Shown one piece after another: positions 3,743 to 50,283 of a DNA stretch of 64,000 bases. The stretch's first letter is position 1. The number at the start of each line of letters is the position of its first letter. The notes under the pieces are model-generated. The model was not told the origin of the DNA and did no database searches. It saw only the letters and a list, made by a program, of their open reading frames with translations. Both the position numbers and the translations under genes were made by a program. This DNA is from Nageia nagi (Eukaryota; Plantae; Pinophyta): positions 197,966,001 through 198,030,000 of the forward strand of contig JBITNC010000001.1 of NCBI GenBank assembly GCA_050084985.1, written 5' to 3'.

Positions 3743-6700
3743 TGAAGTTATTAAACACTTTCAAATAAAATGAATTGCTCTACAACTCAAAGTATGAACA
3801 CACACTCAATAATGGAGGATTGGGATTTAACCAAAAACACCCAAATATTTATTGAGAATGCAATTCACACACTAACACACTTCAAACCTTGCTAATACAT
3901 CATACAACACATAATAAGATGTCATAGGTAACCTTAACCATTCAGCTTATAAGCTAGAAATCAAAATGGACTGGAAATGAAATGCAAAAACAAATAAGAA
4001 ATGACACATAGGAAACACTTCTAGTCAGTCGATCGGTTGACTAGTTGGTGGTCCAGTTATAGACTGGACTAACCAGTGGTCTAGTTATAGACTAGACCAA
4101 CCAGTGGACTGGTTATGAACTAGGCTAACCGGTCTGTAGCATACTGGTCTACATACAAACAAGAAGCACTTAAAATAGTAAGCTTAAATTTCACACAATT
4201 TTGATGTCTTAGGTTGTCTTAAGATCTTCAAAGTCTTCATACTCCCCCTTGCTAATAAGAGGACCAACAATCATGTCTCTTAATAGCACAAATTAAGATT
4301 TTGCCATTTATATTATGAATATATCCACCACTTGATCTTGTATTGGATAATACCTCAATTTTACTATCCCTTTCTCCACCAAATCTTGGATGAAATGAGT
4401 GTTCAAATCAAAGTGTTTTGTTCTAGAATGATGGAAAAAGTTTTGTGCGAAATTGATGGCACTTTGGTTTTCATAAAAAATTATTATTGCTTGTGTTTTC
4501 TCCTCTCCAATCTCCTTCAACACCTTCCTCAACCATAGTGGTTGTGTTGAAGCACTTGTTACTGCTACATATTTAGCTTTAGTAATTGAAAGAGCTACAA
4601 TAGATTATTTTTTGGAGCTCCATGATATCAAAACTAATCCAAGAGAGAAGAAATTCCCACTTGTGCTCTTTCTATCATTCAAATAGCTTCCCCAATCACT
4701 ATCACTAAAACTTGTAAGTTGGAGCTTGGAATTACATGTATAATGTATTCCATAGTTTGTTTTTCCCTTCACATATTTGAGTATTTCTTTGCTACCTTGA
4801 GGTGTATAATTGATGGATTGATCATGTATCTTGCAACCAAATATACACTAAATTGTAAATTTGTTCTTATATTTGTTTCAAACATAAGGCTTCCAACAAT
4901 GCTTCTATATTATTTCTTATTCACCTTTGGTTCTCTATATTCTTTGCAAAGGTGTTCTCCATATGCTGTAGGTGTTGCAATAAGTGTAAAATTCTCTATA
5001 CTTAATATTTTTAACATGTCTCTTGCATATTTGGATTGAGACACAAAGATTTTATCTTGTGTTTGATGCACCTCTAAGCTAATAAAGTAGCTCATCAAAC
5101 CAAGATCTTTCATTTCAAACTCAACCATCATATGAGTTTTGAAATTTTTATTCACTTTGTTATTGCTTCCCATGGATATCAAATCAACTACATACAAGCA
5201 AACAATCAAAATATTAGTACCATTTTTCTTGAAATACAAGGTAGGTTCACTTACACTTCTTTGAAAACCCACACTTTTTTAGTATCCATCAATTCTTGTA
5301 TACCAAGCTCTTGGAGTTTGCTTCAACCCATATAGAGCCTTTTTGAGCTTGTATACATGGTCTTGTTTTTTGAAAACCTCAAATTCTTTAGGTTGTGATA
5401 CATACACCTCTTAATTTATGTATCATTTAAAAATGCACTCTTTACATCCATATGTTGGACTATCCAACTTTTTCTTATAGCTAATGAAAGTACCAATCTA
5501 ATTGTTTCTTGCCTTACAATCGATGTAAATGTCTCTTCAAAATCCACTCCATATTATTGAGTGAATCCTTTTTCCACTAGTCTTTCTTTGTATCTTTCAA
5601 CACTCCCATCACTCTTGCATTTTATTTTGTACACCTATTTTGAACCAACCATTTTCTTTCCTTTGGGAAACTCACAAAGTTCACAAGTGTCATTCCTCTC
5701 AATAGCATCAATCTCCTATTCCATAGCCTGCATCCCAATGCCATTAGAATAAGCTTCTTCATAACAAGATGGTTCAATAACAATAATATTTGAAACAAGA
5801 ACAAAATATGAAATAGAACAAAGTGAATAGTTTACCATTTCACCTTTGGGCTCTCCATTGTCTTCATCTCCATACATTTGAATGCTCTCTAATCTTGACA
5901 CTAGATTTTGTGTTTCTTAATTCTGGCTTCTTGTGATTCTCTTCATGGTGTTACCATCTATAATTTGACTTTTTGGATGATCCTTCAACCATATCTTGCC
6001 TTTGTTGCCTTGATTCAACAATATTGCATTGGGTGAACTTAATGTTATAGTGGAACTAGATGATCTTGGTGAGCTTGGAGCACTCACACTTGGTGGTTTT
6101 CCTTTAATTTTATTTCTCAAAACATGGTTGGACTACTCTTTTACTATTTATTTATCCTCCAAACTCTCTTCTTCAAGACCACTTTACTGCAATTTTTTAT
6201 TACTATATTCTCCCCCTTCATCTAAAATTGCATCTCTTGATACAATTATTTTTTCGCTCTTGGGATTATATAATTTGTACATTTTTGAATGCTCATAATA
6301 TCCTATAAACACACAAGGCTAAGATTTTACATCCAACTTCCTCCTCTATTCATCATTAATGTGCACATATGCAAGACACCCAAAGACTCTCAAGCATTCC
6401 AAATTTTGTTTTCTTTCAAACCAAGCTTCATGGGGGGTAATTTTATCAAAGCTTCTTGTAGGAGACTAGTTCAAAAGTACATTTATTTCCTTATTGCTTC
6501 AGCCCAAAAAATGTTTGGCAATTTTTACTTTGCATCATGCTTCTTGTTATTTCAAGAAGAGTTCTATTTTTCCTTTCTACTACACCTTGTTGCTATGGTG
6601 TGTAGGGAGAGGTAAGGTGTCTCCTAATTCAATTCTCCTTGAAAAATTGAAAAAATTCATTGCTACAATACTCCCCTCCTCTATTTCTTCTCAAACACTT

Positions 6701-9069
6701 CACACTATGCCCACTTTATTTCTCAACAAATAATTTGAATTCCTTAAAATAATTAAATGCTTCATCTTTGCTTGAGATAAAATAAACCCAACTCATTCTT
6801 ATGAAATCATCAATGAAAGTGATAAAGTAAGAAGATTTACCAAAACTTTGATTTTGCATAGGTCCACAAATGTTAGTATGGATCAATTGGAGAGGGTGTT
6901 TGGCTCTCCATGCTTCATTCTTCAAAAACTTGCCCCTTGCTTACTTTCCTAGTGCACACCCTTCACACACATCTTTACTTTCTTCTACTTGTGTAAGCCC
7001 TCTCACCATTTTTGAAAGAGTTTTTAAACTTTGAAAATTAAAGTGACCAAGTCTCATATGCCAAAGTTTACTCTTGTCCTCAATCCCTACAAAAACATAG
7101 CCACCATATTTCTTAAGAACTTTTACAATAAAGAGTTTATTTTCAATCATATGAATAGTAGTCACAAGTCTCTCACCATGATTTTTATCATATATCTTGT
7201 ACATTTTATCTTCAAATACCAATTTATAATTCTTTTCTAGCATTCGGCCAATACTCAATAAACTTTGTTTCAAATTCAAAGTGTAGTAATTTTTCTTTGC
7301 CTTCATGGTTCCCTTCTTTGTTGAAACTTGCATCTCTCCTTTGCCAACAATATTCAATCTCTTCTCATCTCCCAATCTCACACTAGATTTATAAGAGTAG
7401 TCAATTGAGGAGAGCAAAGATTTTTCACCAGTCATGTGATTTGAGCACCCACTATCCAATAGCCAAGTCTCATCTTTAAGTTTTTGAGAATCTTTCATTG
7501 ATATGAATAATTGTTCTTCACCATAACTATGTTCTTCCTCTCCATAATTTACTTCTTTGCCTGCATGTGCTTGCTTCATTCTACATTCATACTCAATATG
7601 GCCAAATTTATTACAACAATAGCATTGCATATTTCTTTTATCTTTACCTCTACTGGATCCTCTTTTAAAGTGTATCCCCCTTAATGATGATGTTGGTTCA
7701 TTTTTTGAATTTTTTTCTCTTCCTTTTCCTCTTCCAAAAGAACCTCTTCTTCCTCCTCTTATAGATCTATTTCTTCCTCTTGCACCTCTACCTTATCCTC
7801 TTCCTTGTCCTTCATTCTCTTTGATGGAGAATGCTTGCTTATTACTGTTACTTATTCCTGCTCTTGTTCTCTTTGACATTCTCTCTTCATGTGATGTGAG
7901 AGAGCTAATTAAATTATCAATTTCCATGGTAAAGAGGTATTTATTCTCTTCAATAATAAGTGCAACATGATCAAGCTTCTCTTTCAATGTTGTCAAAACC
8001 TTCTTGATGACAACCTTCTTTTCTATCTTCTCTCCAAGAGTGGCCATTTTATTAATTATTGATTTCAATCTCACATAGTAATCTCCAGCAGTCTCCTTCT
8101 CTTATTACTTCATGTTCTCAAACTCCCTTCTTAGTGTTTAGAGTTTTACTTCTTTTACTTTGAGACTTCCTTGATATCCTTCTATCAATACTACCCATGC
8201 TTCTTAGGTTGAGACACAACCTGAGATTCTGGGTAAGATGCTCTTATCTAAAGCTTCTTGTATGAAGGATAGAGCCATGGAGTTTTGTCTCTCATTATCA
8301 TTTTCTTCTTTCTTTGCATCTATACTAAAGGCACTCCAATTTGCAAGATCATTATAGCCAACTTCTACAATATCCCAATAGCCTTTTCCCTTCAGAAGAG
8401 TCTTCATATGGACACTCTACTACTCATAGTCACTTCCATCAAATTCTGGAATGGTGATTGAGTTTGAGTTGCTTTCCATTTCATCTCTTCTTCTTCTTGA
8501 ACCCAAAATGATCCAATAAAAATCTGATACCAAATAAAGTTATTAAGCACTTTTAAATAAAACAAATTACTCTATAATTCAATTCTACAACTCAAAGTAT
8601 GAACACATACTCAATAATGGAGGATTGGAATTTAACCAAAAATACCCAAATCTTTATTGAGAATGTAATTCACACACTAACACACTTCAAACCTTTCTAA
8701 TACATCATACAACATATCATAGGTCATAGGTGACCTTAACCATTTAGCTTACAGGTTGGAAATCAAAACAAACTAGAAATGAAATGCCAAAGTGGACAAG
8801 AAATGACACATAGAAAACACTTCTAGTTGATCAATCGATTAACCAACTGGTGGGCAAATTACATATTGGAATAACCAATGGGTCGGTTACGTATTGGACT
8901 AACAAGTGGGCTAGTTATGAAATGGACTAATTGATGGGCCAATTACGAACTAGGTGAACTAGTCTATAGTGTATCGATTTGCAAATAGAGAAGATGCACT
9001 TAAAATAGTAAGCTCAAATTTCACTCAATTTTGATGTCTTAGGTTATCTTAAGGTCTTCAAAGTATTCA
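3743..9069 (-). mobile_element. Full-length but decayed Ty1/copia LTR retrotransposon (5,327 bp)
   Basis: LTRs 3743-4239 and 8535-9069; 5-bp TSD ATTTG at 3738-3742 and 9070-9074; tRNA-Met PBS (TGGTATCAGA) at 8523-8532 on -; PPT AAGGGGGAG at 4242-4250 on -; fragmented gag (8204-8407, 7793-8074), knuckle CYCCNKFGHIEYEC plus protease WLLDSGCSNHM (6941-7630), integrase (6716-6925), RT (4910-5272), RNase H (4308-4532). Confidence 0.95.
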
Positions 9070-11631: not shown

Positions 11632-12335
11632 GATGCTCATATTTAGTAATAAGATACTCATGTTCAGTAACAAGATGCTCATCTTCTACAACAAGTTGCT
11701 TGTCTTCAGTAACAAATCCCTCCTCTTCAATAACAAGTAATTGGTCTTCAATAACAAAGTTGCTTGTCTTCAGTAACAAATCCCTCCTCTTCAATAACAA
11801 GTCATTGGTCTTCAATAACAAAGTTGCTTGTCTTCAGTAACAACTTGCTTATCTTTAGTAACAAGTCACTCATCTTGAATAATAAGTTGCTTCTCTTTAG
11901 TAAACAAGTCACTCATCTTCAGTAATAAGTTGCTTATCTTCAGTAACAAATCACTCTTCCTTAGTAATAAGATGCTCGTATTCATTAACAAGTTACTCAT
12001 ATTTATTAACAAGTTGCTCATTTGTAGTAACAAGCCATTTGTCTATAGTAATGAGTCACTTATATTTAGTTAAAAAAACTTTGGTCTTCACTAACAAGTC
12101 ACTCATCTTTAATAAAATGTTTCTCATATTCAATAACAAGTTTCTCATTTACAGTAACAAGTCACTCATCTTCAGTAACAAGTCACTTGTATTTAGTAAC
12201 AAGTTGCTTATCTTCAGTAACAAGATGCTCATCTTCAATAACAAGTCACTCATATTTAGTAACAAGTTGCTTGTGTTTAGTAACAAGATGCTCATCTTCA
12301 GTAACAAGTCACTTTTGTTCTGTAGCAAGTCACTT
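11632..12335. repeat. 21-bp minisatellite, roughly 33 degenerate units (consensus ~TTCAGTAACAAGTCACTCATC)
   Basis: AGTAACAAG recurs at 21-bp spacing; gives 7-aa periodic ORFs (SNKSLIF)n. Confidence 0.9.
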
Positions 12336-28122: not shown

Positions 28123-28353
28123 TCATTCATATGCATTACCTGGAAATGCTTCCTTTAACGAGCAAAGAGGTATCTGGATGTTCAGTTCATCTAAGCTTGG
28201 CCGATCTTGGATAATTAAGCAATACTCATTAGCTAAATGTAATAAGCAAATGAAACAAAGATGAACTGATATATCCTCGGCTGCAGCAGCTTGACAATTG
28301 GTAGGGAAATCGCTAAGAAGTCCCTTGAATGACATATCAGGCTTCTGTTTGTC
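28123..28353 (-). CDS. CAPH: CAP-H terminal coding exon (DKQKPDMSFKGLL...CFICLLHLANE...stop)
   Basis: Acceptor tttttttctggatag|GAC at 28354/28353, phase 0; kleisin C-terminal motif. Confidence 0.95.
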   Translation of the reverse strand, partial: DKQKPDMSFKGLLSDFPTNCQAAAAEDISVHLCFICLLHLANEYCLIIQDRPSLDELNIQIPLCSLKEAFPGNAYE

Positions 28354-30329: not shown

Positions 30330-31970
30330 AGGAAGAGGAGCATCATGGCGAGGGGAATTCGGCCAGGAGAGTAAGATCTCCTCTGTCTAGAAGGAAGTGG
30401 AGCCCAAGGAGAAGCTCTACTCCAATTGCCAAAGAAAGAAGTCCAAGAAGTTGTCCTACACCAAATAGAGACTCTACACCTGAAAGGAAATTCAATGAGC
30501 TCCTTACAGCAATGAAAAATATGACAGAGGTAGTGCAGAAGCAAACAGTGAAGATGGATGATTGGTTTGGTAGAGAAAAAGGCTCCAAAGAAGAATGCTA
30601 GGAACCTTAGCCCTCCACGTTCTGTCTCTGAAGATGAGGATGATCCAGGAGACAAGGAAAAGAGTGAAAGGGTGCATAGCTTGAGAATATCACATAGCTT
30701 GAGAGACAAAGGATCCACATATCATGGGTCCATGAATCATCAAAACTCACTCTCATAGGGCACAACGTGGGACAAATCCTCTCTTGGGGAGGTACCAAGA
30801 TGAGGACGTTGGGAAGATAGAGGAGCCCCCAATCATTCCTAAGTCGTCCAAGGCTATTTTTGCAAAAAGGTCATCAAATGAGGTAAGAAATTAGATCTCA
30901 AATCCTCTTGAGTTGTATCAGATTTTCCAGGATTATTCCATGCTTGATTGAGAATTTAAAAAAGATGTGAATTTCAGTAGTTATTTGGAGATATTGGGTT
31001 TGAAAGGAAATAGTTCTCATGGAACTCAGTCTTAAGGAAGTCCATGGGGTGATAAGAAAGATTTACACCAAAAGATAAACAAAATACAGTTGCCTATGCA
31101 TGATGGGAAAAACATAACAGCTAGGGCATGGCTACAACAACTCCAAACATACTTCACTCTTTGCCCCAATATGATTGAAGAGGATGCAATATGTTGTTTT
31201 TGGAAGGAGATGCACTTGAGTGGTCGCAACATGGAGTAATTCGTCAAGATTATTCTCCAATTTCCTCTTTTGATGAATTTGCTAGAAGGTTAGTAAACGT
31301 TTTGATAGAAAGAAGGAAACTGACTATTTTATGGAGCTCACAACTTTGAAAAAGCAAGGATCAGTTGATGACTACATTTCAGAATTTCATAAAATAGCAA
31401 TGATGATTCATAATATTTAAGAGGAAAGGTTGACCTTTATTTTTATAGAAGGATTAATGGAACCTATACAAGGTGTGGTGAAAATCTCAAAGCCAAGAAC
31501 TCTTGATGATGCAATAAGAGCTGCCTACAATTTAGAACCCACTATGACCACAAAAGGTGTTCATACACATAAAGGACATATTACACAAGAGATTACAACA
31601 ACAATGGAAGTGACCAGCAAGCCCAAGCCATTCTTTCCACCAAGAACAAGCCAATTGGATGCAACTACTAGAAACAAATTGATGGAAGAAGGTAATTATT
31701 TTCATTGCAAGAAACCATGGGAACCGGAACATAGTTGCCAAGGCAAAGGGCAAGTACACTACGTTGAGGTCCTTCCTCATGATGATGAAAGTTCAGATTT
31801 GAAGCTAGATGGTGACATGTTGGAGCATGAGGATACACCCAAGGAAGAGGCATCTCTTGGAAGCATGATTGCTTCCCTCAATCGAGCACCAAAATATTTC
31901 ACCATGAAGGTAATTGAACAAGCAGGAGGACAAGAGGTAATGGTTCTAATAGAACCTGATGCCAACCAAT
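30330..31970 (+). mobile_element. Degenerate Ty3/gypsy gag and start of protease
   Basis: Retrotrans-gag-like ARAWLQQLQTYF (~31120); ORF 31430-31972 FIEGLMEPIQG...KPRTLDDAI...CKKPWEPEHSC...VMVLIEPDA. Confidence 0.8.
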
Positions 31971-36493: not shown

Positions 36494-37034
36494 AAACCCT
36501 TAGTCATAATTCTTGTTTTCCTTAAAAAATTTTCATCAATGAAATTATGAGTAGCAAATTTCAACAAAAGAGAAAATATGAGAATAGTCTTGGCTAATTA
36601 CACCATGTTGCCACCACTCAAGTGCATCTCCCTTAAAATGCAACATTGCAAAATGAATTGCATCTTCTTCAATCATATTGGGGCTTAGGGTGAAGTACAC
36701 CTAGAGTTGTTGTACCTAGCCCTAGCTGTTATCTTTTTTCCATCATATATAGGTGCTTGCATTTTGTTTATCTTTTGCAGCAAATATTTCCTATCACCCC
36801 ATGAATTTCCCTAAGAACGGGTCCCATAAGAATTGTTCCCTTTCAAACCCAATAACTCCAAATAGCTACTGAAATTCACATCATTTCTTAATTTTGAATC
36901 AAGCAAGGAATAATCTTTGAAATTTTGATTTAACTCAAGAGGGTTTGGAACCCAATTTTTTACCTCATTTGAAGACCTTTTTGTAAACATAGGCTTAGGA
37001 GGCCTACGAAAGATTGGCGACTCCCCTATCTTTC

Positions 37035-37645
37035 TGTAGATGCCTAAAAATGAATTATTGTTTATTAAATAATTCATTTTAGAGCCTCAATGATGTATTA
37101 TGTACATAGGGATGAAATAATACCCTAAGTCATAATAAAGCTATGTCATATGTTTAGTGGACCCTTGTGGTATGTACAAGGGGTCAAAAAGATCAAAGTC
37201 ATGTAAAATTGTATCATATATAAAGGCATCAATTGATGACCTTAAAATTTACGGACAAACAAATATGAGGAGAACTCTAGAGAGATTCTAACACATGATA
37301 CATCACTCTGTTATGCTCACATATTATTCATAAGTTACATTCTTAGGTTCACTATCTGATGATTATTTCGTTCAGTCGTCGCTATATTCTTTCTTGTATT
37401 TGTTTTATTGCTTATCTTAAGCCGTCAATGGCGTGCCAAATATAGGATGCCAATGGCGTGCAATTAAATGAATATATGCTTGTCTTTCATGTATGTTTCT
37501 CTTAATGGAATGAATATGTGATATGATTAAACACAAGTATTTTTCTATTATGCGTTATTCCAATATTTCAGATATATGCATCAAAAAGAAACAAGTAGAC
37601 CAATACATCCCTATAAACAATTATATGCATTATTTTGGGACTACA
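37035..37645. mobile_element. 611-bp solo LTR, TSD CTTTC
   Basis: TGTAGATGCCTAAAAATG...CATTATTTTGGGACTACA with imperfect inverted termini; CTTTC at 37030-37034 and, displaced by the copia insertion, at 47906-47910. Confidence 0.8.
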
Positions 37646-37646
37646 C

Positions 37647-38147
37647 TGTTAGAATTTGTAATGAAATATTGTGAATATCTAAACTCCTTGTAAGTTCAAT
37701 TAATCACTTAAAGGATATGTAGATACCTTAAAGGATTAATTGAATTCTTTATTATGTGTGGACTTTGACCTAACTATGGGGTTAGTTGGTAGGTTAAAGT
37801 TAGGTCACACATTTATTGTAACCCTAACCTTACCCTTGGGTTAAAGGGAGGTTAGGGAGGTGCTCTCACATTATAAATAGAGGGCCTCTCCTCTTGTAAA
37901 GACATCTAAGTTTTGAGTAAGATTACTCTACTAGGTTGTGTAAGAGAGAGCAAGAGAAAAGTTGTAAGAGGCATAGATTGAGAATAGAGAACTAGTTGTG
38001 GATGTACTCCCAAGGAGGGAGGAACCACACTATATTGGTGTCATATTGTGGGAATGTGTTAGTAGCTTGTAGATGTTGCATGTTGAATGTGATTGAGCTT
38101 TCTATAGTCTTGGACCTTTGGGAATTAGATCTAGGCTAATTCCATCA
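37647..38147 (+). repeat. Intact 5' LTR (501 bp)
   Basis: TGTTAG...CCATCA; TATA-like box; immediately followed by a PBS. Confidence 0.93.
37872..37879 (+). promoter_or_regulatory. Putative LTR TATA box (TATAAATA)
   Basis: TATAAATAGAGG in mid-LTR; the same motif is conserved in the related LTR at ~18988-18999 (- strand). Confidence 0.7.
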
Positions 38148-38149
38148 AG

Positions 38150-38161
38150 TGGTATCAGAGC
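38150..38161 (+). promoter_or_regulatory. Primer binding site for initiator tRNA-Met
   Basis: TGGTATCAGAGC 2 nt after the LTR-terminal CA. Confidence 0.92.
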
Positions 38162-38570
38162 TTGGTGTAGAAGCTCTTCTTCTACATCTTGGAGGTTCTT
38201 CATCCTTCTCAAATTTGGAGATCTTAATCCTAATCTTCATTGTGAGGTAAATGGTTTACAATACAATCATTAACCACAACTGGTTTCACTGTACATAGTA
38301 GTCGATCAACTTTAAGCTGACATGTGAGTCTCCATGAGCTTGCTTTCACAAGGTGAGTAACCTGCATTTCTGAAGATCCTGCATGCTACAAACAACTTAT
38401 GAACAAAATCAGTTAGATGCATCATATATTCAAATAAGAGAATCAAATAATGCTATCTTATAAATAACTGATTAATGGTGCACTATAAGTCATCACGGAG
38501 ATGCTAAGCCATCACTCATAGTCACCTGTTGTATATAGACATGTGTTGATTATTAATAGAGCATAAAATT

Positions 38571-39003
38571 TGTACAACGAGTTTCTCACGCAGAGCAAAC
38601 TCACAACAGAGGTATAGAATGTACAACAAGTTCGTCACGCAGAGCGAACTTACCACGGAGGTATATTAATTATATGCTCAAATATTGTACAACGAGTTTC
38701 TCACGCAGAGCAAACTCACCACGGAGGTATAGAGCATCAAAATTGTACAACGAGTTTCTCACGCAGAGCAAACTCACCACGGAGGTATAGAATGTACAAC
38801 AAGTTCGTCACGCAGAGCGAACTTACCACGGAGGTATATTAATTATATGCTCAAAATTTGTACAACGAGTTTCTCACGCAGAGCAAACTCACCACGGAGG
38901 TATAAAATGTACAACAAGTTTGTCACGCAGAGCAAACTTACCACGGAGGTATAAAAATGTACAACAAGTTAGTCACGCAGAGCAAACTTACCACGGAGGT
39001 ATA
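38571..39003. repeat. Array of 8 ~45-bp hairpin-containing repeats with 4-21-bp linkers, in the copia 3'UTR
   Basis: Core TGTACAACRAGTTHSTCACGCAGAGCRAACTYACCACGGAGGTAT at ~38571, 38620, 38686, 38744, 38793, 38859, 38908, 38958. Confidence 0.95.
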
Positions 39004-39074
39004 TCATAATCAACAAATGGTATACAACAACAAAAGAGCCTCTTAGAGGTGAAGTTGTCATCATTAACAAAGGT

Positions 39075-42000
39075 TCAAACTTCACTCCCCCTTGAGGGCA
39101 ACTTCACCAACCCGAGAGAATCCCTAAGCTTGCTGAACTGAGCTTCAGGAAGGGGCTTGGTGAATAGATCAGCGGAGTTTTCAGTAGATGGACAATACTC
39201 CAAGTGTATGATGTCATCTAGAACCTTCTCCTTGATAAAATGGGCTTGGATTTCCACATGTTTGGTTCTCTGATGGAACACAGGATTCTTAGCCAAAGAG
39301 ATAGCCGATTGATTATCTGAAGAAATAAGAGATGGGTCATTTTGCTTATACCCAATTTCGTTCAGAAGATGTCTTAGCCAAATAGCTTCTTGGGCGGCAA
39401 CAGACATGGCTCGATATTCGGCTTCGGTGGTAGAAAGAGTCACAGTAGGTTGCTTCTTGGAAGCCCAAGAGATAGCACCTGAACCAATGTTGAACACATA
39501 TGCAGAGGTTGATTTTCTGTCATCTCTATCTCCCCCATAATCAGAATCTGAAAACCCTGAGAGAACAATTAAGGGCACTTTGGAATACTTAAGAGCAAGA
39601 TCCTTTGTCCCTGCCACATACCTCAAGATTTGCTTCACAGCATTGAGGTGTTCAATATATGGTTTTTGCATGAATCGTGCCATCAGATTCACTGCAAAGG
39701 CAATATCAAGACGAGAGATAGTCAGATACAGAAGACTACCGATCAATTGCCTATAAGTTGTAGCATCGGCCAACTGAGAATCTGAGCTCAGTGATACAAC
39801 GATTCCAGGAGAAACAGGTATTGTAGCATATCTACCCTCCTCCATTCCAAACTTTTGCAAGATGTCTGATATATACTTAGATTGACTAAGATAAGTACAA
39901 TCTTTGTGTTGGTATACTTGCATTCCAAGATAGTAATGCAATAGACCTAGATCAGTCATTTCAAATGTTGCCTTCAGTTTGGATATGCACTCTTGGATGA
40001 TTTCAATATTGTTGCCTGTTATCAGAAGATCATCCACATAAAGGAGAATTAAGACCACGTCTTTTCCTTGATTGAGTACATAGAGATCTGAGTCGGAGAA
40101 GCACTTGGAAAAACCAATATCTGCAAAGAATCCTGAAATTTTCTTGTACCATGCTCTAGTGCTTGTTTAAGTCCATACAAAGACTTCTTTAGTTTGCACA
40201 CAAGAGACTCTTTTCCTTCTGGAATAAATCCTTCTGGTTGATTCATGTAGATTTCTACATCCAAGTCACCATTGAGAAATGCACTCTTGACATCAAGTTG
40301 GAAAACTTTCCATCCCTGAGCTGCAGAAGAGCAAGGATTATCCTAACAGTAGGCATTTTGGCCACAGGAGCAAAGGTTTCCTCATAATCAATACCATATT
40401 TCTGAGCGAATCCTTTGGCCACTAACCTTGCTTTGTATTTTTCAACTTCTCCATCAGAATTGTACTTGACCTTGTAAATCCATTTATTTCCAATCACATT
40501 TTTCTCATTGGGATAAGGAACCAAATCCCAAGTTTCATTTTTCATGAGTGCCTCGTACTCAACTTTCATAGCTTCCATCCAACACTCTTGCTTGCAAGCT
40601 TCTTTGAATGTTGATGGCTCATTCATATTATCAATTTTGGCAAATAAGGATTTATTCAAGGTCATACTTCTTGTAATTCTCTGAGCTGGAGAATTTTGCT
40701 CTTGTGGTGACTTCCCTACATGATCATCCAACCAGTTAGGTGCAAGCATAGAATCTTCTGAATCAGACACCTCAGCATGAGAAGTCGTATCCTCAGGAAG
40801 TTCATTGAACTTGACATCCCTAGAAACAAAGATTGTTTTATGAGATGAGGAGTAGAGCCTGTAACCTCTATGCTGATTATCATACCCCACAAAGATGCAT
40901 TTTTTTGATCTTTTGTCTAGCTTCTTTCTTTTCTCTGAGGTAATGAAGGCAAATGCATCACATCCAAAGACCTTGAAGTGTGAGATGTTAGGTTTCTTTC
41001 CTGTCCATGCTTCATACGGAGTTTTTCCTTTAACTGCTTTAGTAGGACACCTATTAAGGGTGTGAATAGCAGTGTGAACAGCTTCTCCCCATAAGAAACT
41101 AGGAAGGTTACCCAACATGCATCTTGCCATTTCCATAATGGTGCGATTCTTTCTTTCAGCAACTCCATTTTGCTGAGGGGTGTAAGGGATTGTGAATTGT
41201 CGCTTGATCCCATGTTTAACACAATAATCGTTAAACTCATTGCTATTATATTCACCCCCATTGTCAGATCTCAGCATTTTGATCTTAAAATCAGTTTGAT
41301 TTTCAACAAGTGCCTTGAAGTCCTTAAATCGATCAAGAGTTTGATCCTTGTGCTCAAGTAGATAACCAAATGTCATCCTACTGAAGTCATCAATGAAGGT
41401 CAGAACATAAGAAGCTCCCCCTAGAGACTTAGTCTGAATTGGACCCATCAAATCTGAATGCACTAGCTGAAGAGGACGAGTAGCCCGAGTTGCCTTATCC
41501 TTTTCAAACTTTTGCCTATTCATCTTTCCAAGAATGCACCTTTCACAAAGACCAATTGTGGGTGAAATATTAGGTAAACCTTCCACAAGTTCTTGATTTT
41601 TCATATCTTGAATACTCTTGTGGTTAAGGTGCCCTAATCATTGATGCCAAAGATTACCTTTTGAACACACATTTGTAGCAAGACAAATCTTTGAAGGTAC
41701 TTGATCCACAATATAAAGGTCATTCTTTACTGATCCTTTCATCAAAGTGGCAAGTCCTTTCTTAACACACCAGGAGTGTGAGGTAAACTCAAATGAGCAT
41801 CTTGTCCTTGTAATCTGAATTACCGAGATAAGATTCATCCTTAGTTTAGGCACATAAAAGACATTATCAAGTGTCTTTCCATGAATCTTCACATTCCCTA
41901 TTCTTTGAACATCAAGGACTGTATTATCACCTATCACAACTGTATCCTTGTTGTACTTATGAAAATTTTCAAACTTATCCTTTTCATAACACATGTGATT

Positions 42001-42600
42001 AGTGCATCCTGAATCAATAATCCAATCATTTGAAATAGTTTGAGTCATTGAGTAGTAGGCAACAGAAGCAGCATGCTTGTTCTTCTTTTTATTATTGAAA
42101 TTTCTCACATTTGCATTTCCCTTTCCTTTTTGAGCAAATTTCTTTTTGCGACAATCATACTCTTTGTGCCCAAAGATGCCACAGAAGTTACAATTCCCAT
42201 CAAACTTTTCCTGCGGTGTTGGTTTGCTTGATCTAGCTTTGTCATTCCTTTGCTTGAAGTTGTTGTGCTTCCTGATGGTAGATGAGAATTTGTTGTCTTT
42301 GAATTTATAATGTTTGAACGTTTATTGTAAGGAGTTTTGGTTGCTCCTAGAGCAATGCTATTATACTTTGGAGAAATGTTCAACATTTTCTTGTTCAAAG
42401 CTTCCTCATGTTTCAGAAGTAGTCTAGAAAGATTGTCAAGGGAGATAACATCTTCTTCATCATCGAGCCTAGTCTCCATAACTGTGACAAAGTTACTGAA
42501 CTTTGTAGAGAGGCTTTGAAGAATAATGAAGACCATGAACTCATCATTGATCCAATTGCACCCACAGCCAACCAGTTGTGTCCTGAGGTCAATGATTTGT
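39075..42600 (-). pseudogene. Ty1/copia gag(C-terminal)-protease-integrase-RT-RNase H polyprotein with few lesions, 5'-truncated
   Basis: gag IIDLRTQLVG...IILQSL; knuckle CNFCGIFGHKEYDC (~42153-42194); WIIDSGCTNHM; LQLVHSDLMGP, LRSDNGGEY, PQQNGVAER; KARLVAKGF; LYGLKQA; YVDDLL; RTKHVE, ADLFTK. Domain order PR-INT-RT-RH is copia. One stop (41638) and about 3 frameshifts. Confidence 0.96.
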
Positions 42601-43681
42601 GTCAAAATCAAAGCTGTCAAGCCACAGCTTCCACCTTAATAACCTGGTTTGACTGACCACATTGTCAGTAGCAACCTTGAAAAATCCCATTGCATGCTTA
42701 AGATCAGTTCTTATCAAAAATCTTTCTGACATCACAAACAAAGAGAATGTTTTTATTCCTTTGACAATGGCTAACAATTCTTTATGAGTACTGGGGTACC
42801 TTTTTTCTGTATCTGTGAATGCCCCTGAGGCATATCTACAAATGACTTCTGCAACTTTTCCTCCAGGAGCTTCTTCTTGTTCTTTTAATACGGCTCCCCA
42901 ATATTCAGCAGAAGCATCTGTTTGTATCACCTTTTTCCCTGTTCCTGGAATTCTCAAAGCAGGTAAATTAGCACATTTTTTCTTTATTCTTTTCACTGCA
43001 TCTGTATGTGCTATACTCCAGGATTTTGGATTCTTAGTTAATCTCTGATTTAATAACTGTCTATCTTGAGCCAAATGACTATACCAACCAGAGATAAAAT
43101 TGACACATCCTAAAAATCTTTGTAATTGTGTCCTATCCAAAATCTCATCAGGGAATTGCTTTAAATTAGAAAAAATATGTTCTTGTAACCTGATGGTACC
43201 ATTCTGTAGATGTACTCCCAGATACTTGATGTCAGCTTTGCCAATCTCCATCTTTTGTTCTGAAAGCACCAGCCCATTAGTATACACCAAAGAATAAAAC
43301 TGCTCAAGGTGGATGATATGTTCTGAAACAGAATTGCTGTAAACTAAAATATCATCAATGTATACTATTATGAAATGGGCATAGTCTTTAAAAATTTCAT
43401 CCATTGTTGCTTGGAATATACTGGGTGCTGTTTTAAGACCAAAAGGTAGTACAGTCCACTGATATAAGCCTCTAGGAACTATAAAAGCTGTTTTAGGCTT
43501 ATCTTCTTCTCTCAGTTTGATTTGCCAAAACCCAGATTTCAAATCAAATTTAGAAAACACTTTAGCATGCTGAATCCTCTTAATGATTTCATCTTTTGAA
43601 GGCAGAGGATGTTTAACTGGTTTTATGAGTTTGTTTAAAGGTTGATAATTAACTACTAACCTTTTCTTGCCATGTACTTGC
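42601..43681 (-). pseudogene. Caulimovirid reverse transcriptase plus RNase H (RNase H C-terminus cut at ...WLDSFDFD)
   Basis: ORF 42589-43560 extends upstream in frame to 43681; PFGLKTAPSIFQ, VYIDDILVYS, LQRFLG, TDAS, KELLA, IRTD. Confidence 0.93.
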
Positions 43682-46072
43682 TCAGCTCTTGTTTACATAA
43701 AACGCATGGCAAGCAAACTCATTGTTGCTTTTTTCTATTAATCCTTTCTGCAGGAGTTCTTTGATTTCCTGGGCACACTCCTGTTGTGCTGAGGGGCTCA
43801 TCCCTTTATGATGTGCTTTTTGCTGTGGCAATTTCTCAACATCTAGTGAGATGGTACAGGTGTTTACCTTTCTGCTCCAGAATGCTGTAGGATCATTACT
43901 GCACAGATTTCTCTTAATCTTTTCTGTGATAGTCTGAAAAGCAGTATGATTAGTATGAATTTGTTTATACAACCAATCTGATTTGAATTCTTTCACCTTC
44001 TGATTTAAGGGGATTCTGACAATATTTTTTAACACCCTTGGAATAATCAGATTTTGGTTTAATATAAACTTATCTGCAAGGACCTGGAAACTCTCAAATT
44101 GACCAATGAAATCATATCCTAATAACAGATCATACGTTGGTATTTCATGAGAAGCAACAGTAATAGGATATATCTTTTTTCCTATCATTACTGGTAGTGA
44201 AGCTTCTACAGGGGATATGACTTTTTGTGTATTAAACACAATTCTATTGGTTCCAGGTTTCCACAGATCTACTGGGCATATATGATATCTAGCAAGACTT
44301 AATGATGCACCAGTATCCATTAATGCATGCACCTTATAGGGTTTATACCCATCATATTTTAAAGAAATCTCAGCAACAGGCATATGGGGTTTATCATTCA
44401 TATTTACCTCATGTTGCTGGCTAGGTGCTTCTTCATCTTGTGTTTCTTGAGTAAGGAGCCCTTGCTGTGCCTCGAGCTGTTCAGCTTCTTCATACAAGGC
44501 TTCTTCATACTCAAGATCCTGAGCAAACTGGGTTTCTTCTGCTACCAGCTCATCTAATTCCTTTTGTGCACGTTCCAGGAATCTGCTCAACTTCTCTATT
44601 CTAGAGATCCTCCATTCTGTTCTCTTGGCTATATCTTTTTTAGAAGGAACAGTTAATGTTTGAGCATATTTATCAAAAATGGAGGAAGGTCTTGGTGGTA
44701 TTACCTCAGGACAGTGTAACTGTGCTTTGACATCAGGAGCACAGGGTACCACTGGGCTTTTACCCTTCTTCTTATTCAAATCCTCTTCTGCTTTTCTTTT
44801 AACCTCTCTTTCCCTGAACTGTCCAAATTCAAGTACACCAATAGGTTCTGGAGAAGATGCTCTGGAATGTACTTGTTTTGACTGTGAGGGCCACAATCCT
44901 TCTTCATGCAGGCTGGACAGATCTTCATGGATAGCTTTCTTATGTTTGTCACGATTAGTTCCCCAGAAAGCTCTACACTGTTGAGTAACATGGCTTTTCA
45001 ATCCACACTGTGCACAAGGAAGATGTGGTCTGACAACTGGTCTACTAGGAGGAGAAAGAGGAGTATACACAGGTGCTGATTGTTCTGAAGATTGTACTTG
45101 CAGAGCACGCTGAGTTTGGATTTGAATATTGCGTTGCTCTACTTCTTCACGTTTCTGCTGGAGTTTCAGGGCTTCAATGTGTTGAAGAGTGAGCTTATGG
45201 ATTAGATCAGAGAGATTATGACGTTGATGGATTAAATGAGGAGGTAAGGACTCAAGTTGTTGAGTCAGGTTGAGAATTTGGATTTTGATTTGTTCAGGAT
45301 TTTGGAACAGTGGATTATATTGATTGGTACTGGGAGTAGCAGTATTCATGAATATAGGATTGTAATAATCAAGAGAGGAATCTATACAAAATCCTTTGTC
45401 AGACAGATCATCATTCTCAAACATATTTACATGATCTGACATGTCAGAATCAGAAGTTTCTGAATTCACATTGATTTCTGCACTAGAAGAACTTATAGAA
45501 GAATCTTCACATTCATAATTATAATGAACTTCAAAATCAGAGCATACTGATTCTAATTCAATGTCATAACTGCCTGAATCTGAATAACACACAGTATGTA
45601 CAAAATTAACTTTGGCAGTACCTTTCTTTGTACTTCTCTGAGGACATTTGGAGGCATAATGTTGGCCTTTGCAAATGTAACAGGAGACTGCCCCTCCTGC
45701 CTTCCTTCTTTTAGAAAACCTCTTGAATCTGAATTTAGGTTTTCTTGTGGCTTCCCTTCTGTACTTCATCTTTTTTCTTCTTTTCTTTTTCTTGCACTTG
45801 CAAGAGAAGGATCCACACTTGCAGCCTTTATACTTTTTCTTGGAAGACTTTCTGCCATAGTATTTGTCCTTACAACCAAATTGATTAGTTTCATGGTCAA
45901 GACAGAATTTATCTAACATCTTATTCTTTTTAGACTGTACTTTAGTCTTTCTTTCAGCACACAAGTCATTATGAACAGAAATGATGTACTGTCTTAACTG
46001 ACCAAATGTAAGATTTGCAAGAACAATATTACCTTTCCTCTTAAGGTACTCTTGTTTGAAGTATTTTGGCAT
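43682..46072 (-). pseudogene. Caulimovirid polyprotein middle part: CP C-terminus, Zn knuckles, coiled coil, aspartic protease, RT N-terminus
   Basis: 796-aa ORF; CYICKGQHYASKC (45644-45682), CAQCGLKSHVTQQC (44975-45016), LMDTGASLS (~44310), LLLGYDF, EIKELLQKGLIEKS; frameshift at ~43685. Confidence 0.9.
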
Positions 46073-46084
46073 GCCCTCCAGAAG

Positions 46085-47695
46085 CTAGACTTTGTAAGCT
46101 TCATTATACACTTCTCTGCTCTGATAGTACCATTGCTGCATTTTATTAAGGTACTCAGGCAGTTTCTTCATGGAGCACAATCTGGCGCCCATAAAAGCAT
46201 TCTTGCCCAGTTGTATGTCATCTGCAATATCTCCTACAAACTCTGTACCTACTGCTGCTAGTAGGTTTACATGACTGCCGCCAAGCCTATCTTTTGAATC
46301 TTGGTGCAGGCTATTCCACCAGTTGGCCAGATTGCCATTAAAACCTGTAATCAAAATAGAGTAAATTTGCTCATTTGTCATATGATTACCTTCATATTGG
46401 AATGCTGCCCAACCATACATGGCTCGCAGTACTTTGTTGGCTTCTTCACGGCTCATGTTGTCCATGTTCCAAATCATGGGTCCTGACAAGGCTTTTGGAA
46501 CATTAGGGAGATCTTGCATTCTTTTGTCTGTGGGAATAGTGAATCCTCCCACAGGATCATGTTCTGCCACAGCACTGGATTCTTCATCATGATAGCCAAT
46601 AGACAGTCTAGAGCCTTGCTCCATGTGTATATATTTTTCCCTTTCAGCTCTAGCCTTAAAATAAGGTGACAGAGGAGTCTTGATTTCTCTTTTAGCTTCT
46701 TCCTTTGCTTTGGCTCTCCTCTCTGCTTCTAGTTCTTCGAACTGCCTCTGCTGTGCTGTAATAACATCTTCAAAAGAGGCTTCACTCTTTCCATGAGGTC
46801 TTCTAACAGGAGGTGGAGGAGTGAGAACTTTTTCTATCTTATGAAATTCATGTTCTGTTCTTGAAGCATTTCTCTGTACAGAAACAGTAAGATTATCAAG
46901 AACAGGAGCAATAGCAGTTACCTTTTCCTCAACGGAGGCCAAACTTTCTTCAACCTTTTTCTGCTGCTCTTCTTTGGCTTTTCTTCGTGCTTCTTTTGCA
47001 GCAAGAGCATTGGCTGTCATTCTTTGTGCTTCTGCCCATCTTTCTTGAAGATTTCTTTGATTATCCACTATCTGCTGTTGAGACTTGCGCAGTTCAGCAA
47101 TGTCTGCATAGATTTGTCTGGAAGTTCCGTACACATTGTGTACACCCAAATTAGTCCAGGTGGCCAGCTTTTCTCCCATGGTATGCTTGCTTGCATCCTG
47201 GCTGGTTCTGACGAATGAATAGGCAGTTTCATGCCCATCATCGTCCTTATAAGTAATATCTTCCAATTTGGGGAAAGATAATGACAAACCCTTTTTTGAA
47301 CTAGTTCCTGCACTAGTTTCTTCAGTGGATATCATGTTACAAAATTTAGTAGGGCAGTTAACCTTCTTATTGCATATATCACACATATGTACATCAGCAT
47401 TATGAATACAGGTATTGACGGTATTCTGTACATACCCTTTCTTGCTTTTCAAAGCAAGATATGCAGCAACTTGAGCTTGGATTTTGTCTGCTCTTTCTGG
47501 AGGAAACATTCTGATGCTTCCATCTGACATTTGAACAGGAACTAAGGAGCTTTGAGGGACAAACTCCTTTTCTTCTGTCTCTTCCTCTTGATACATAGGT
47601 TTGGTTGGAACACGAGCTGAGCTGCTTCTTTTGAAGGAAATGGCTGAATGATCTGAGTCAATGTGACGAACATCTTTACCAAGTCTGGCAGTAAG
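46085..47695 (-). pseudogene. Caulimovirid polyprotein N-terminal part: possible movement-protein tail, coiled coil, coat protein core
   Basis: Same frame as the 43682-46072 ORF, separated by a single TAG (46085-46087); CP motif; AISFKRSSSAR resembles the segment after the MP domain in such viruses (inference). Confidence 0.85.
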
Positions 47696-47901
47696 TACTA
47701 GGTTGTGTAGGAGAGAGCAAGAGAAAAGTTGTAAGAGAGGCATAGATTGAGAATAGAGAACTAGTTGTGGATGTACTCCCAAGGAGGGAGGAACCACATT
47801 ATATTGGTGTCATATTGTGGGAATGTGTTAGTAGCTTGTAGATGTTGCATGTTGAATGTGATTGAGCTTTCTATAGTCTTGGACCTAGGCTAATTCCATC
47901 A
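47696..47901 (+). repeat. Truncated 3' LTR (first ~282 bp and PPT missing)
   Basis: Matches 37929-38147; ends CCATCA followed by TSD TACAC. Confidence 0.93.
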
Positions 47902-50172
47902 TACACTTTCCAACATCCACATCCAAGAATCTCCCTAAGAGAGTATTTGTCCCACGTGGCGCTCTATGACAGTGAAATCTCAAAAAAGCATGCTCTTGGT
48001 GACTCATGGACCCATGATGTGTGGATCCTCTGTGCGATCTTTTCATGTTATTTGCTCTTTCACTCGTTTCTTCATCTTTTGGATCATCCTCATCTTCAGA
48101 AATAGAACGTGGAAAATTAGGGTTCCTAGTGTTCCTTTTTGGGGCCTTTTATTTCCCAAACCAAGCATCCATCTTGGTCTTTTGGTTCTGCACCACCTCT
48201 ATCATGTTTTTCATTGATGTAAAGAGATCATTGAATTTTCTTTCTAGCATGGACTCTTTGGTTGTATATCCGTATTAGATCTAACCTCAACGAAAATATC
48301 CCAACAATGCCTTGACTGGACATTTTGCTCCACAAGTCTAAAAATGTTTTTAAAACATTGAAACGGCCCTTCCAATGCTAGACGCTTGATTCCAAGGGTC
48401 GACTAGGTATCTATGATGCATAGAAAAATTCCAACAAAACCCTCAATGCTAGATCTAAACTCATGTAGCCAAATGTATCCTCAAACTTGCTCAATCTTCC
48501 TCTTAAGACTAGACGTTCCACCTTGGGCTCAATATGCCTCCACATCTGACCTGAAATTGCAAACTTCAATCTCTCCAATGGCAGATATGGGATATAAAAT
48601 TAGTCTTTTCAGCAATGAATTGTAAATGCAAACCCTGGATGGATTTGCCTCTCAAGTAGGTAGATAGCTCTAGGGTTTTATCCCTCAAGCCTCTAGAGGC
48701 TTTGATCCTCTAGGAACCCCAATAATCTCTTGCAAAATTTCCAATGTACAAGAGCCAAAATAAATGGCTAGCCACAATAATATTCTCCCAAGGAAACAAC
48801 AATATTCTCAATAGTCTGATCTCACAAATGAAATGCTTCCTCCTTTATATAAACAATACTCCTCATTAGGGTTTCTAAAAACATCCTTTAGATCCAACGC
48901 ACCATGTTGCTCCATGTTGGGGATTAAGTCTCCATCATTAGATGCTCAAGATTGAATCCCCACATGGATGGCCCACAATCACTTAAAAGGTTATTCAAGC
49001 ACATGCTTAAATAAAAGTACTAATGTATTTGGCATATTATAATGTTACTTTATAAAAAAAATAAAAACATATCCCTTAAATACTTTTCCACTTCACTAAA
49101 ATAACTGTAAAGCACTTCTAACTTGTCCAAGAGGATGGACATTTCTCCCTTGGAGATACTTATTCAACACTTAGACAAAAACAAGATAATATTTACAATG
49201 CTACCAAGGAACAACATAATCACTCAATTCATGTCAACATCCTTGTTTTGCACCACCAATTAGAATCTCGTAAAATCATGGGACACAAGAGGAGATAAAC
49301 ACTTCAGCACACCCGCACTCAACTTACAACAACAGACTTTTGCTCTACCTCTCTTTGAGTGACAACATTGTGAAGAATAATTGGTACTGTAAGGCAATCT
49401 AACACTGTAGTCCGAAAAACCCAATTGGCATCCTTTGCAACAAGCATGAACCTAACTATATTTACAAGTATATGCATGGTTTATGAAGATCCAATATAAT
49501 AGATTGAAATGGAGAATTATAAGGTATAAAAAGAGAAAATACAAAGGATGAATCCGGACCTATATATTTGTGTTGAGTCTTTCTAATCCTTTGAGCAACC
49601 ATGCATTACAGGAAATGTAGAATTTGATTAAACCATTTTTGTCAGAGTTCAATTCAACGAACCCTAAAATTAGAAATTTTTCCATTGCTTCCGAGGCATT
49701 TGTGTAGCTCCAAGGATATAAAGTGAAGGAAGGAGTCATTGTTGTTTCTCTTAATTTCTAACTGCAAGAAGGGTCCATTCTGAAGGGACTTTTGAAAGCA
49801 TCAAACATTCTAAGGGTGACTTCTTGAAAAAAAATTTATCATTCTATTTTTTTTTATCTTGCGGTGAGAGGGCCTTCCCAAAGATCAATGTTTTATGAAT
49901 TTTTCATCACATTTAAAATTATATGGATAACAGGTATCAAAAACAAGAATACTACAAGACCCACTAATAACATTATACCATTTCAAAAGAGCAACAAAGA
50001 AAACCTTGTCTTCTCAATTTATTTTAAATATTTGACTGCATTACACAAGGTATGCTGAGTTATCATCTTATGAGCCCAAGAATACTGTGTACCACCCCAT
50101 AAATGCAATGTAACAAAAAAAATAGTAAAAACATATTTAGGAACTTTTATGAAGTAGAATAAAATAGTATAC

Positions 50173-50283
50173 CACATATTTTTCCTTGCAAAAGTCCTGA
50201 ATAGAGTCCCAAAGAGTTCTTTTTAACACATGAACATCGACTTGTTTTGATGTTTTGTCATAGTCTACTTCGATCTTTTGAAC
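50173..50283 (-). CDS. CAPH: CAP-H penultimate exon (VQKIEVDYDKTSKQVDVHVLKRTLWDSIQDFCKEKYV), absent from the ORF track
   Basis: 111 bp, tgtgcag|GTT...GTG|gtatac, phase 0/0; conserved Cnd2 motif. Confidence 0.93.

Follow-up and report, generated by a model that had tools for sequence, protein, structure and literature searches.

A young, doubly clipped caulimovirid fragment with a second zinc knuckle in nested retrotransposons of Nageia nagi

Introduction

We describe a fragment of an endogenous caulimovirid in a stretch of 64,000 nucleotides from the conifer Nageia nagi (GenBank assembly GCA_050084985.1, contig JBITNC010000001.1, positions 197,966,001 to 198,030,000), which is called the window below and in which all positions are counted. 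The fragment is a real and young viral fossil that has been clipped at both ends. Its layout is a known one, no close relative of it was found, and it has one odd trait, namely a second zinc knuckle. We will argue that this 5.1-kb piece of gymnosperm clade B type is probably filler DNA that took the place of sequence deleted from two nested retrotransposons, within what is likely the last intron of the host condensin gene CAP-H. A preliminary description of the same DNA, made from the letters alone, is referred to where the results bear on it.

Results and Discussion

The viral piece consists of three minus-strand frames that sum to 1,697 codons. Its best-matching relative, P0001, is a single frame of 1,768 aa encoding the movement protein (MP, residues 40-194), capsid protein (CP), aspartic protease (AP), reverse transcriptase (RT) and RNase H (RH), and it is used as the reference in the following list of features.

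42590..47695, minus strand: caulimovirid fragment of about 5.1 kb, both ends clipped (from the frames, Pfam and the relatives' alignment)
46088..47695, minus strand: frame 1, with the segment that follows the missing MP, holding a Cys motif and a coiled coil, and the N part of the capsid (DUF7746)
46085..46087, minus strand: break 1, an in-frame stop within the capsid region; relatives are collinear across it
43685..46084, minus strand: frame 2, with the C part of the capsid, two zinc knuckles, a long helical linker, the aspartic protease and the RT start
45644..45682, minus strand: capsid zinc knuckle of the shortened form CX2CX3HX4C, common to the Ginkgo and Taxus relatives
44975..45016, minus strand: second knuckle of the canonical form CX2CX4HX4C, in an extra linker segment missing from P0001
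43844..44368, minus strand: aspartic protease Peptidase_A3 (Pfam E 1.7e-8)
43685..43692, minus strand: break 2, a frame change in the N-terminal part of RT; relatives are continuous at the site
42592..43692, minus strand: frame 3, RT and RNase H, the latter shortened at the junction with a copia element

The Pfam order along the piece is DUF7746 (E 2e-8, in frame 1), Peptidase_A3, RVT_1 (E 1.6e-37) and RT_RNaseH. This is the order CP-AP-RT-RNase H without an integrase, the neighbouring integrase being that of the copia. In the RT-RH tree, the window joins the caulimovirids and not gypsy, on a 100/100 branch against two gypsy outgroups. The absent integrase and the tree position led us to reject a gypsy element, and the domain order and the same tree position bear out the caulimovirid identity proposed in the preliminary description.

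Frames 1 and 2 are one frame split by the stop, while frame 3 lies in another frame and overlaps frame 2 at about 43685-43692. Frame 1 aligns with the Taxus protein P0005 from residue 82 and with P0001 from residue 286. Reading the piece as one CP-AP-RT-RH polyprotein that carries two breaks is well supported, because P0001 is collinear with it across the stop and on either side of the frame change. The earlier suggestion that the three open reading frames (ORFs) form one reading frame of about 1,700 aa with two lesions agrees with this result. One can also consider that the stop and the frame change belong to the viral design, by read-through, ribosomal frameshift or separate ORFs, or that one of them is an assembly error. 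Split layouts do occur in the family, with the Glycine max virus reported to have its ORF1 split after MP (PMC4241990). However, the stop falls in mid-capsid and the frame change in an RT segment that is conserved, no interruption is seen in P0001, P0005 and P0238 wherever they extend over the two sites, and a single stop is what is expected at about 0.5% decay, so that this explanation is highly improbable.

The copy had also been called near-intact, a claim that had to be given up. MP was not found by Pfam, tblastn or profile search in any of the six frames of the 64-kb window, and the likeness of the first 40 residues to an MP tail falls short of significance (its score was reached in 165 of 2,000 shuffles, and the profile test was negative). 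A tRNA-Met primer site, exact or with one mismatch, is absent from the viral strand, the region expected to carry it being among the clipped parts; the sole site, at 38150 on the plus strand, was rejected as viral and belongs to a host long terminal repeat (LTR) element. The match to P0001 stops at residue 1750 of its 1768, and RNase H is about 18 residues shorter than in the relatives and without the last conserved RNase H motif, into which four of the five aligned relatives extend where the window frame ends. Both ends of the fragment are junctions with retrotransposon DNA, and no further viral remnant was detected elsewhere in the window. We thus have a fragment clipped at either end and not a near-intact genome. 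Judged from its sequence, the copy is predicted to be unable to replicate, being without MP, primer site, promoter region and RNase H end.

The retrotransposons around the viral piece are essential for understanding how it came to be there. They consist of a plus-strand LTR element, extending from 37647 to 47901 with the same five bases at both flanks, and a minus-strand copia within it:

37642..37646, plus strand: left copy of the 5-bp target-site duplication
37647..38147, plus strand: complete 5' LTR of the enclosing element, 501 bp, TG...CA
38150..38161, plus strand: tRNA-Met primer-binding site of the enclosing element, not viral
38240..39093, minus strand: polypurine tract of the copia (39085-39093), together with its likely 3' LTR, which contains 49-bp tandem repeats; the left limit is approximate
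39075..42600, minus strand: copia that has lost its 5' LTR and the start of gag; it retains the gag end, protease, integrase, RT and RNase H and has four breaks
47696..47901, plus strand: 3' LTR remnant, the first ~280 bp replaced by viral DNA
47902..47906, plus strand: right copy of the 5-bp target-site duplication

Retrotransposition yields two full LTRs. Since the 3' LTR of the enclosing element is clipped, the junction between virus and LTR was formed in place, after the insertion of that element. At the other end, the viral RNase H joins the copia gag remnant directly, with about 16 nt that, as judged by eye, can plausibly be read as either. Neither a copia 5' LTR nor a primer site was found upstream of the viral piece.

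The simplest history, we infer, is one deletion filled with viral DNA, which likely entered the chromosome when a break was being mended. In this mechanism, the plus-strand LTR element would first have inserted and made the 5-bp target duplication, and the copia would then have inserted on the minus strand, about 90 bp behind the primer site of the LTR element. Next, a deletion would have taken the 5' end of the copia, the interior of the LTR element and ~280 bp at the start of its 3' LTR, with viral DNA joined into the gap, probably via short matching ends. The one stop and the one frame change would have arisen after the capture. The source virus would likely have made one MP-CP-AP-RT-RH polyprotein, cleaved by its own protease. 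According to PMC10377300, filler capture is a standard hypothesis for such elements, and a retrotransposon chimera is the other route discussed.

Such a chimera was considered for the present case as well. Here, a template switch during reverse transcription would first have joined virus and copia, the product would have been inserted by the copia integrase, and a later deletion would have removed its 5' LTR together with the viral 5' end. Virus and copia do share a strand in head-to-tail order, viral DNA standing where the gag start belongs, and this orientation is the only support for the chimera at this locus; the route has been proposed for banana badnaviruses (PMC10377300). However, the chimera needs one event more than the filler model, a deletion, if it is to account for the clipping of the enclosing element's 3' LTR, and the copia 5' LTR and primer site are missing upstream of the viral piece. 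We therefore judge it unlikely.

The LTR pair of the enclosing element differs by 2 substitutions in 204 nt and by two indels. At 2.2e-9 substitutions at each site per year, the gymnosperm rate as used in PMC13477047, this corresponds to an age of about 2.2 million years (0.3-8). Given a gymnosperm host and no gene conversion, this age would be an upper bound for the viral capture. One stop in 1,697 codons fits a decay of about 0.4-0.6%, with an upper bound of 2-3%. For CHG, the virus has an observed/expected ratio of 1.49, compared to 0.84 for the copia and 0.5 for a nearby intron; CpG is depleted in the viral piece (0.13), while CHG is not. Integration likely took place a few million years ago at most, and the view of this copy as a young one is upheld by the LTRs, the single stop and the CHG ratio.

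Another option is that a longer viral piece, perhaps a whole genome, integrated first and that later deletions trimmed both of its ends against the retrotransposons. Both ends are junctions at which host-side sequence is missing too, and such trimming would give the same end state. On the other hand, two deletions, independent of each other, would have to fall within the few million years that the LTR pair leaves open, and no further viral remnant was found in the window. This makes it quite improbable, below the chimera.

It is important to point out that a number of observations weigh against the filler mechanism or the picture of the virus built on it. Virus and copia have the same orientation, as expected of a chimera. 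Microhomology at the junctions is unproven, and neither junction has a (TA)n run, the nearest being 2.7 kb off. The dating uses only 2 LTR substitutions and leaves gene conversion aside, and the number of breaks, 2 in 5.1 kb of virus versus 4 in 3.5 kb of copia, does not differ significantly (p 0.23). That MP would stand in the same frame is indicated by the relatives only, and the group that holds the window in the tree, in which Adiantum is represented too, lacks strong support (85/90). With all these points counted, filler DNA remains the probable explanation.

The nest of retrotransposons likely lies inside the last intron of CAP-H, a predicted intron of 21.8 kb whose length, like the relatives of the virus, points to a gymnosperm host. 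Exons with Cnd2 matches are found on both sides of the nest:

50173..50283, minus strand: exon of condensin CAP-H (Cnd2) on the upstream side of the insertion (matched by Pfam Cnd2 at E 2.7e-5, which falls below the cut-off for whole proteins)
28126..28350, minus strand: last coding exon of CAP-H, downstream of the insertion (Pfam Cnd2 E 1.2e-14, profile positions 706-763 of 764)

Further CAP-H exons form a tight cluster at 59.3-61.4 kb, and in one Pfam run four of the seven exon pieces gave Cnd2 matches. The virus is oriented in the sense direction of the gene. The minus-strand stretch 28126-61400 holds the 3' part of CAP-H, in which an intron of about 9 kb and another of 21.8 kb come after the exon cluster.

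We now consider the odd trait of the fragment, a second CCHC knuckle in an enlarged linker between capsid and protease, unseen in the fetched relatives. The shortened spacing of the capsid knuckle, CX2CX3HX4C, is present in 6 of 362 fetched proteins; among these six are models from Ginkgo and Taxus as well as a single row that falls outside the group. The second, canonical knuckle follows 220 residues beyond it. The distance from capsid knuckle to protease is 440 aa here, compared to 275 aa in P0001 and 239-288 aa in four comparable relatives; it is 120 aa in Welwitschia virus 2 (WMV2) and 611 aa in one Ginkgo model, there measured to a later protease motif. Two knuckles were found in none of the 88 knuckle-bearing proteins among the 362, many of which are fragments.

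Among the fetched proteins, the second knuckle is matched best by an ordinary capsid knuckle region (E 0.004), a hint that it may have arisen by duplication or recombination. A PDB sequence search with the second-knuckle region gave only a nucleocapsid protein (E 9.2), and a search of the literature, a weak test, found no published report of a second zinc motif within Caulimoviridae. When the linker was folded as a single sequence (mean pLDDT 56), two long confident helices were obtained, with both knuckles unresolved. As to a role, one would first guess at additional RNA binding when the virus is packaged.

The relatives were compared on the basis of 312 fetched near-full-length RT-RH matches, from searches that were not exhaustive. 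The best identity is 56%, to P0001, followed by the Ginkgo gene model Gb_06750 (51%), P0240 (50%) and Taxus (50%). In addition, P0239 has 55% over 81% of the query, and Cryptomeria 48%. For RT alone the values are 61% for P0001 and 56% for Ginkgo, and for the RT core 62.6% and 58%. The nearest named relatives are gene models, from Ginkgo (Gb_06750, Gb_05161), Taxus chinensis (50-52%) and Cryptomeria (48%). Nothing thus exceeds the species threshold of 80% that had been named as the limit for novelty, protein identity being used here as a proxy for a nucleotide criterion.

An exhaustive HMMER search with the middle frame against 1.84 billion representatives gave 107 matches, the top ones being P0001 (36%), a Taxus gene model, two contigs, Cryptomeria and Ginkgo. 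Among viral contigs, a single-protein query found no relatives and an alignment query five loci at 34-44%. Metagenome contigs gave 32 loci with long matches at no more than about 42%, a row at 78% being an 18-residue motif only. When the whole length of P0001 was used as query, most of the matches were gypsy elements and a relative already known at 50% was not recovered, so the sensitivity of this search was low. P0001 itself is an unbroken caulimovirid polyprotein on a 6-kb Logan contig for which the searches gave no close relative. In the Taxus gene model P0005, a caulimovirid polyprotein is fused to a polygalacturonase (Glyco_hydro_28), probably an artefact of gene prediction.

The careful tree comprises 34 rows, namely 33 hand-picked fetched proteins and the window, with WMV2 and petunia vein clearing virus (PVCV) not among them; a 61-row tree was run in quick mode only. 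The window pairs with P0239 (95/84) in a group of ten rows that also holds Ginkgo, Taxus, Cryptomeria, P0001 and the Adiantum pair, and this group stands apart from the florendovirus-like, petuvirus-like and clade A rows. The gymnosperm affinity suggested earlier is in line with both the nearest named relatives and this grouping. More precisely, the window lies outside a 100/100 petuvirus-like group (Citrus, Arabidopsis, Gossypium and Lonicera rows; PVCV not included) and outside a 100/99 florendovirus-like group, whose rows were labelled from domain content.

The preliminary description had further set a petuvirus-like single polyprotein against a florendovirus layout with two ORFs. The single frame across CP to RH stands, but the contrast does not, as florendovirus ORF1 is also reported as MP-CP-AP-RT-RH, with ORF2 downstream, and petuvirus (PVCV) likewise as one polyprotein (PMC4241990). 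The contrast is also inapplicable here because the piece is cut within RNase H and the florendovirus ORF2 lies beyond; the source virus may have had a second ORF downstream. Petuvirus and Florendovirus thus have MP-CP-AP-RT-RH in one polyprotein, as the source virus likely did, but the petuvirus-like and florendovirus-like rows are at about 43-46% RT-RH identity and form fully supported clades of their own without the window. Single ORFs are also known from Pinus nigra virus 1 (PnV1; 2,129 aa, PMC6256638) and, as reported, from Welwitschia viruses 1 and 2 (2,264 and 2,111 aa, 10.1101/2022.02.23.481439). As these three described gymnosperm viruses and florendovirus ORF1 all have a single polyprotein, we do not regard the layout as a sign that the virus is new.

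In the work of Vassilieff et al. 2026 (PMC13308828), a cut-off of 62% RT identity defines 71 operational taxonomic units (OTUs), of which 35 are new. These include OTUs specific to Taxus, Ginkgo and Cupressaceae, and a gymnosperm-wide group B.2.2 reported in Ginkgoaceae, Gnetaceae, Cupressaceae and Araucariaceae. The home of the viral piece is likely gymnosperm clade B, in group B.2.2 or a neighbour, a placement made via the taxa of its relatives. With the gymnosperm gene models named above it shares the shortened capsid knuckle and the helical linker, while its RT identity to the named ones is 54-58%, below the OTU threshold of that study. P0001 has the same one-frame MP-CP-AP-RT-RH layout and shortened knuckle but is without the second knuckle, and it is at the genus-level threshold and far under species level.

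The described gymnosperm viruses are more distant. WMV2 has 35% identity in RT-RH and 42% in RT, and belongs to a different subclade, as does PnV1, with about 53% in the RT core (79/150, a hand count on the printed supplement of PMC9794742). Gymnendovirus 1 (Diop et al. 2018) of Picea gave 80/150 in the RT core by a hand count from the same source, also under 62%; the hand counts cover two of the nine printed references. Gymnendovirus 3 and 4 and the Ginkgo references seemed no nearer when inspected by eye. In the searched portions of the de Tomas and Vicient supplements, no close row was found for the RT peptide words of the window.

Other repeats were noted in the window. The likely 3' LTR of the copia has its 49-bp tandem repeats at 38556-39004, with higher-order units of 115/173 bp, and a segment at 18411-18589 matches its likely end (38249-38425) at 71%, perhaps as a piece of a related solo LTR. 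A stretch of degraded retroelement recurs in inverted copies (73-80%) at 30482-31284, 36552-37032 and 47906-48244, and the enclosing LTR element is inserted within one such stretch. An older degraded copia (Pol_BBD, gag_pre-integrase and RVT_2 pieces) is found at 3745-9069 between a 76%-identical LTR-like pair, and a 21-bp tandem array of about 32 copies at 11632-12313.

Conclusions

The preliminary description saw the viral frames correctly but was without the nested LTR and copia context, the CAP-H intron and the second zinc knuckle. A stronger reading of the fragment, namely a genus-level gymnosperm caulimovirid outside all 71 OTUs that was still infecting its host no more than a few million years ago and had two different knuckles, the second acquired by duplication or recombination in the linker, is possible but in our judgement doubtful.

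The picture of the family is unchanged by this fragment, because such RT loci number from tens to thousands in gymnosperm genomes (PMC13308828). However, gymnosperm caulimovirids beyond the pine family and Welwitschia are mostly known as RT clusters, and a lightly decayed piece of 5 kb reveals the anatomy of such viruses from capsid to RNase H. The enclosing LTR pair provides a rare upper bound for the age of a single integration, and the clipped LTR favours capture in place over transport by a retrotransposon, one of the two routes under debate.

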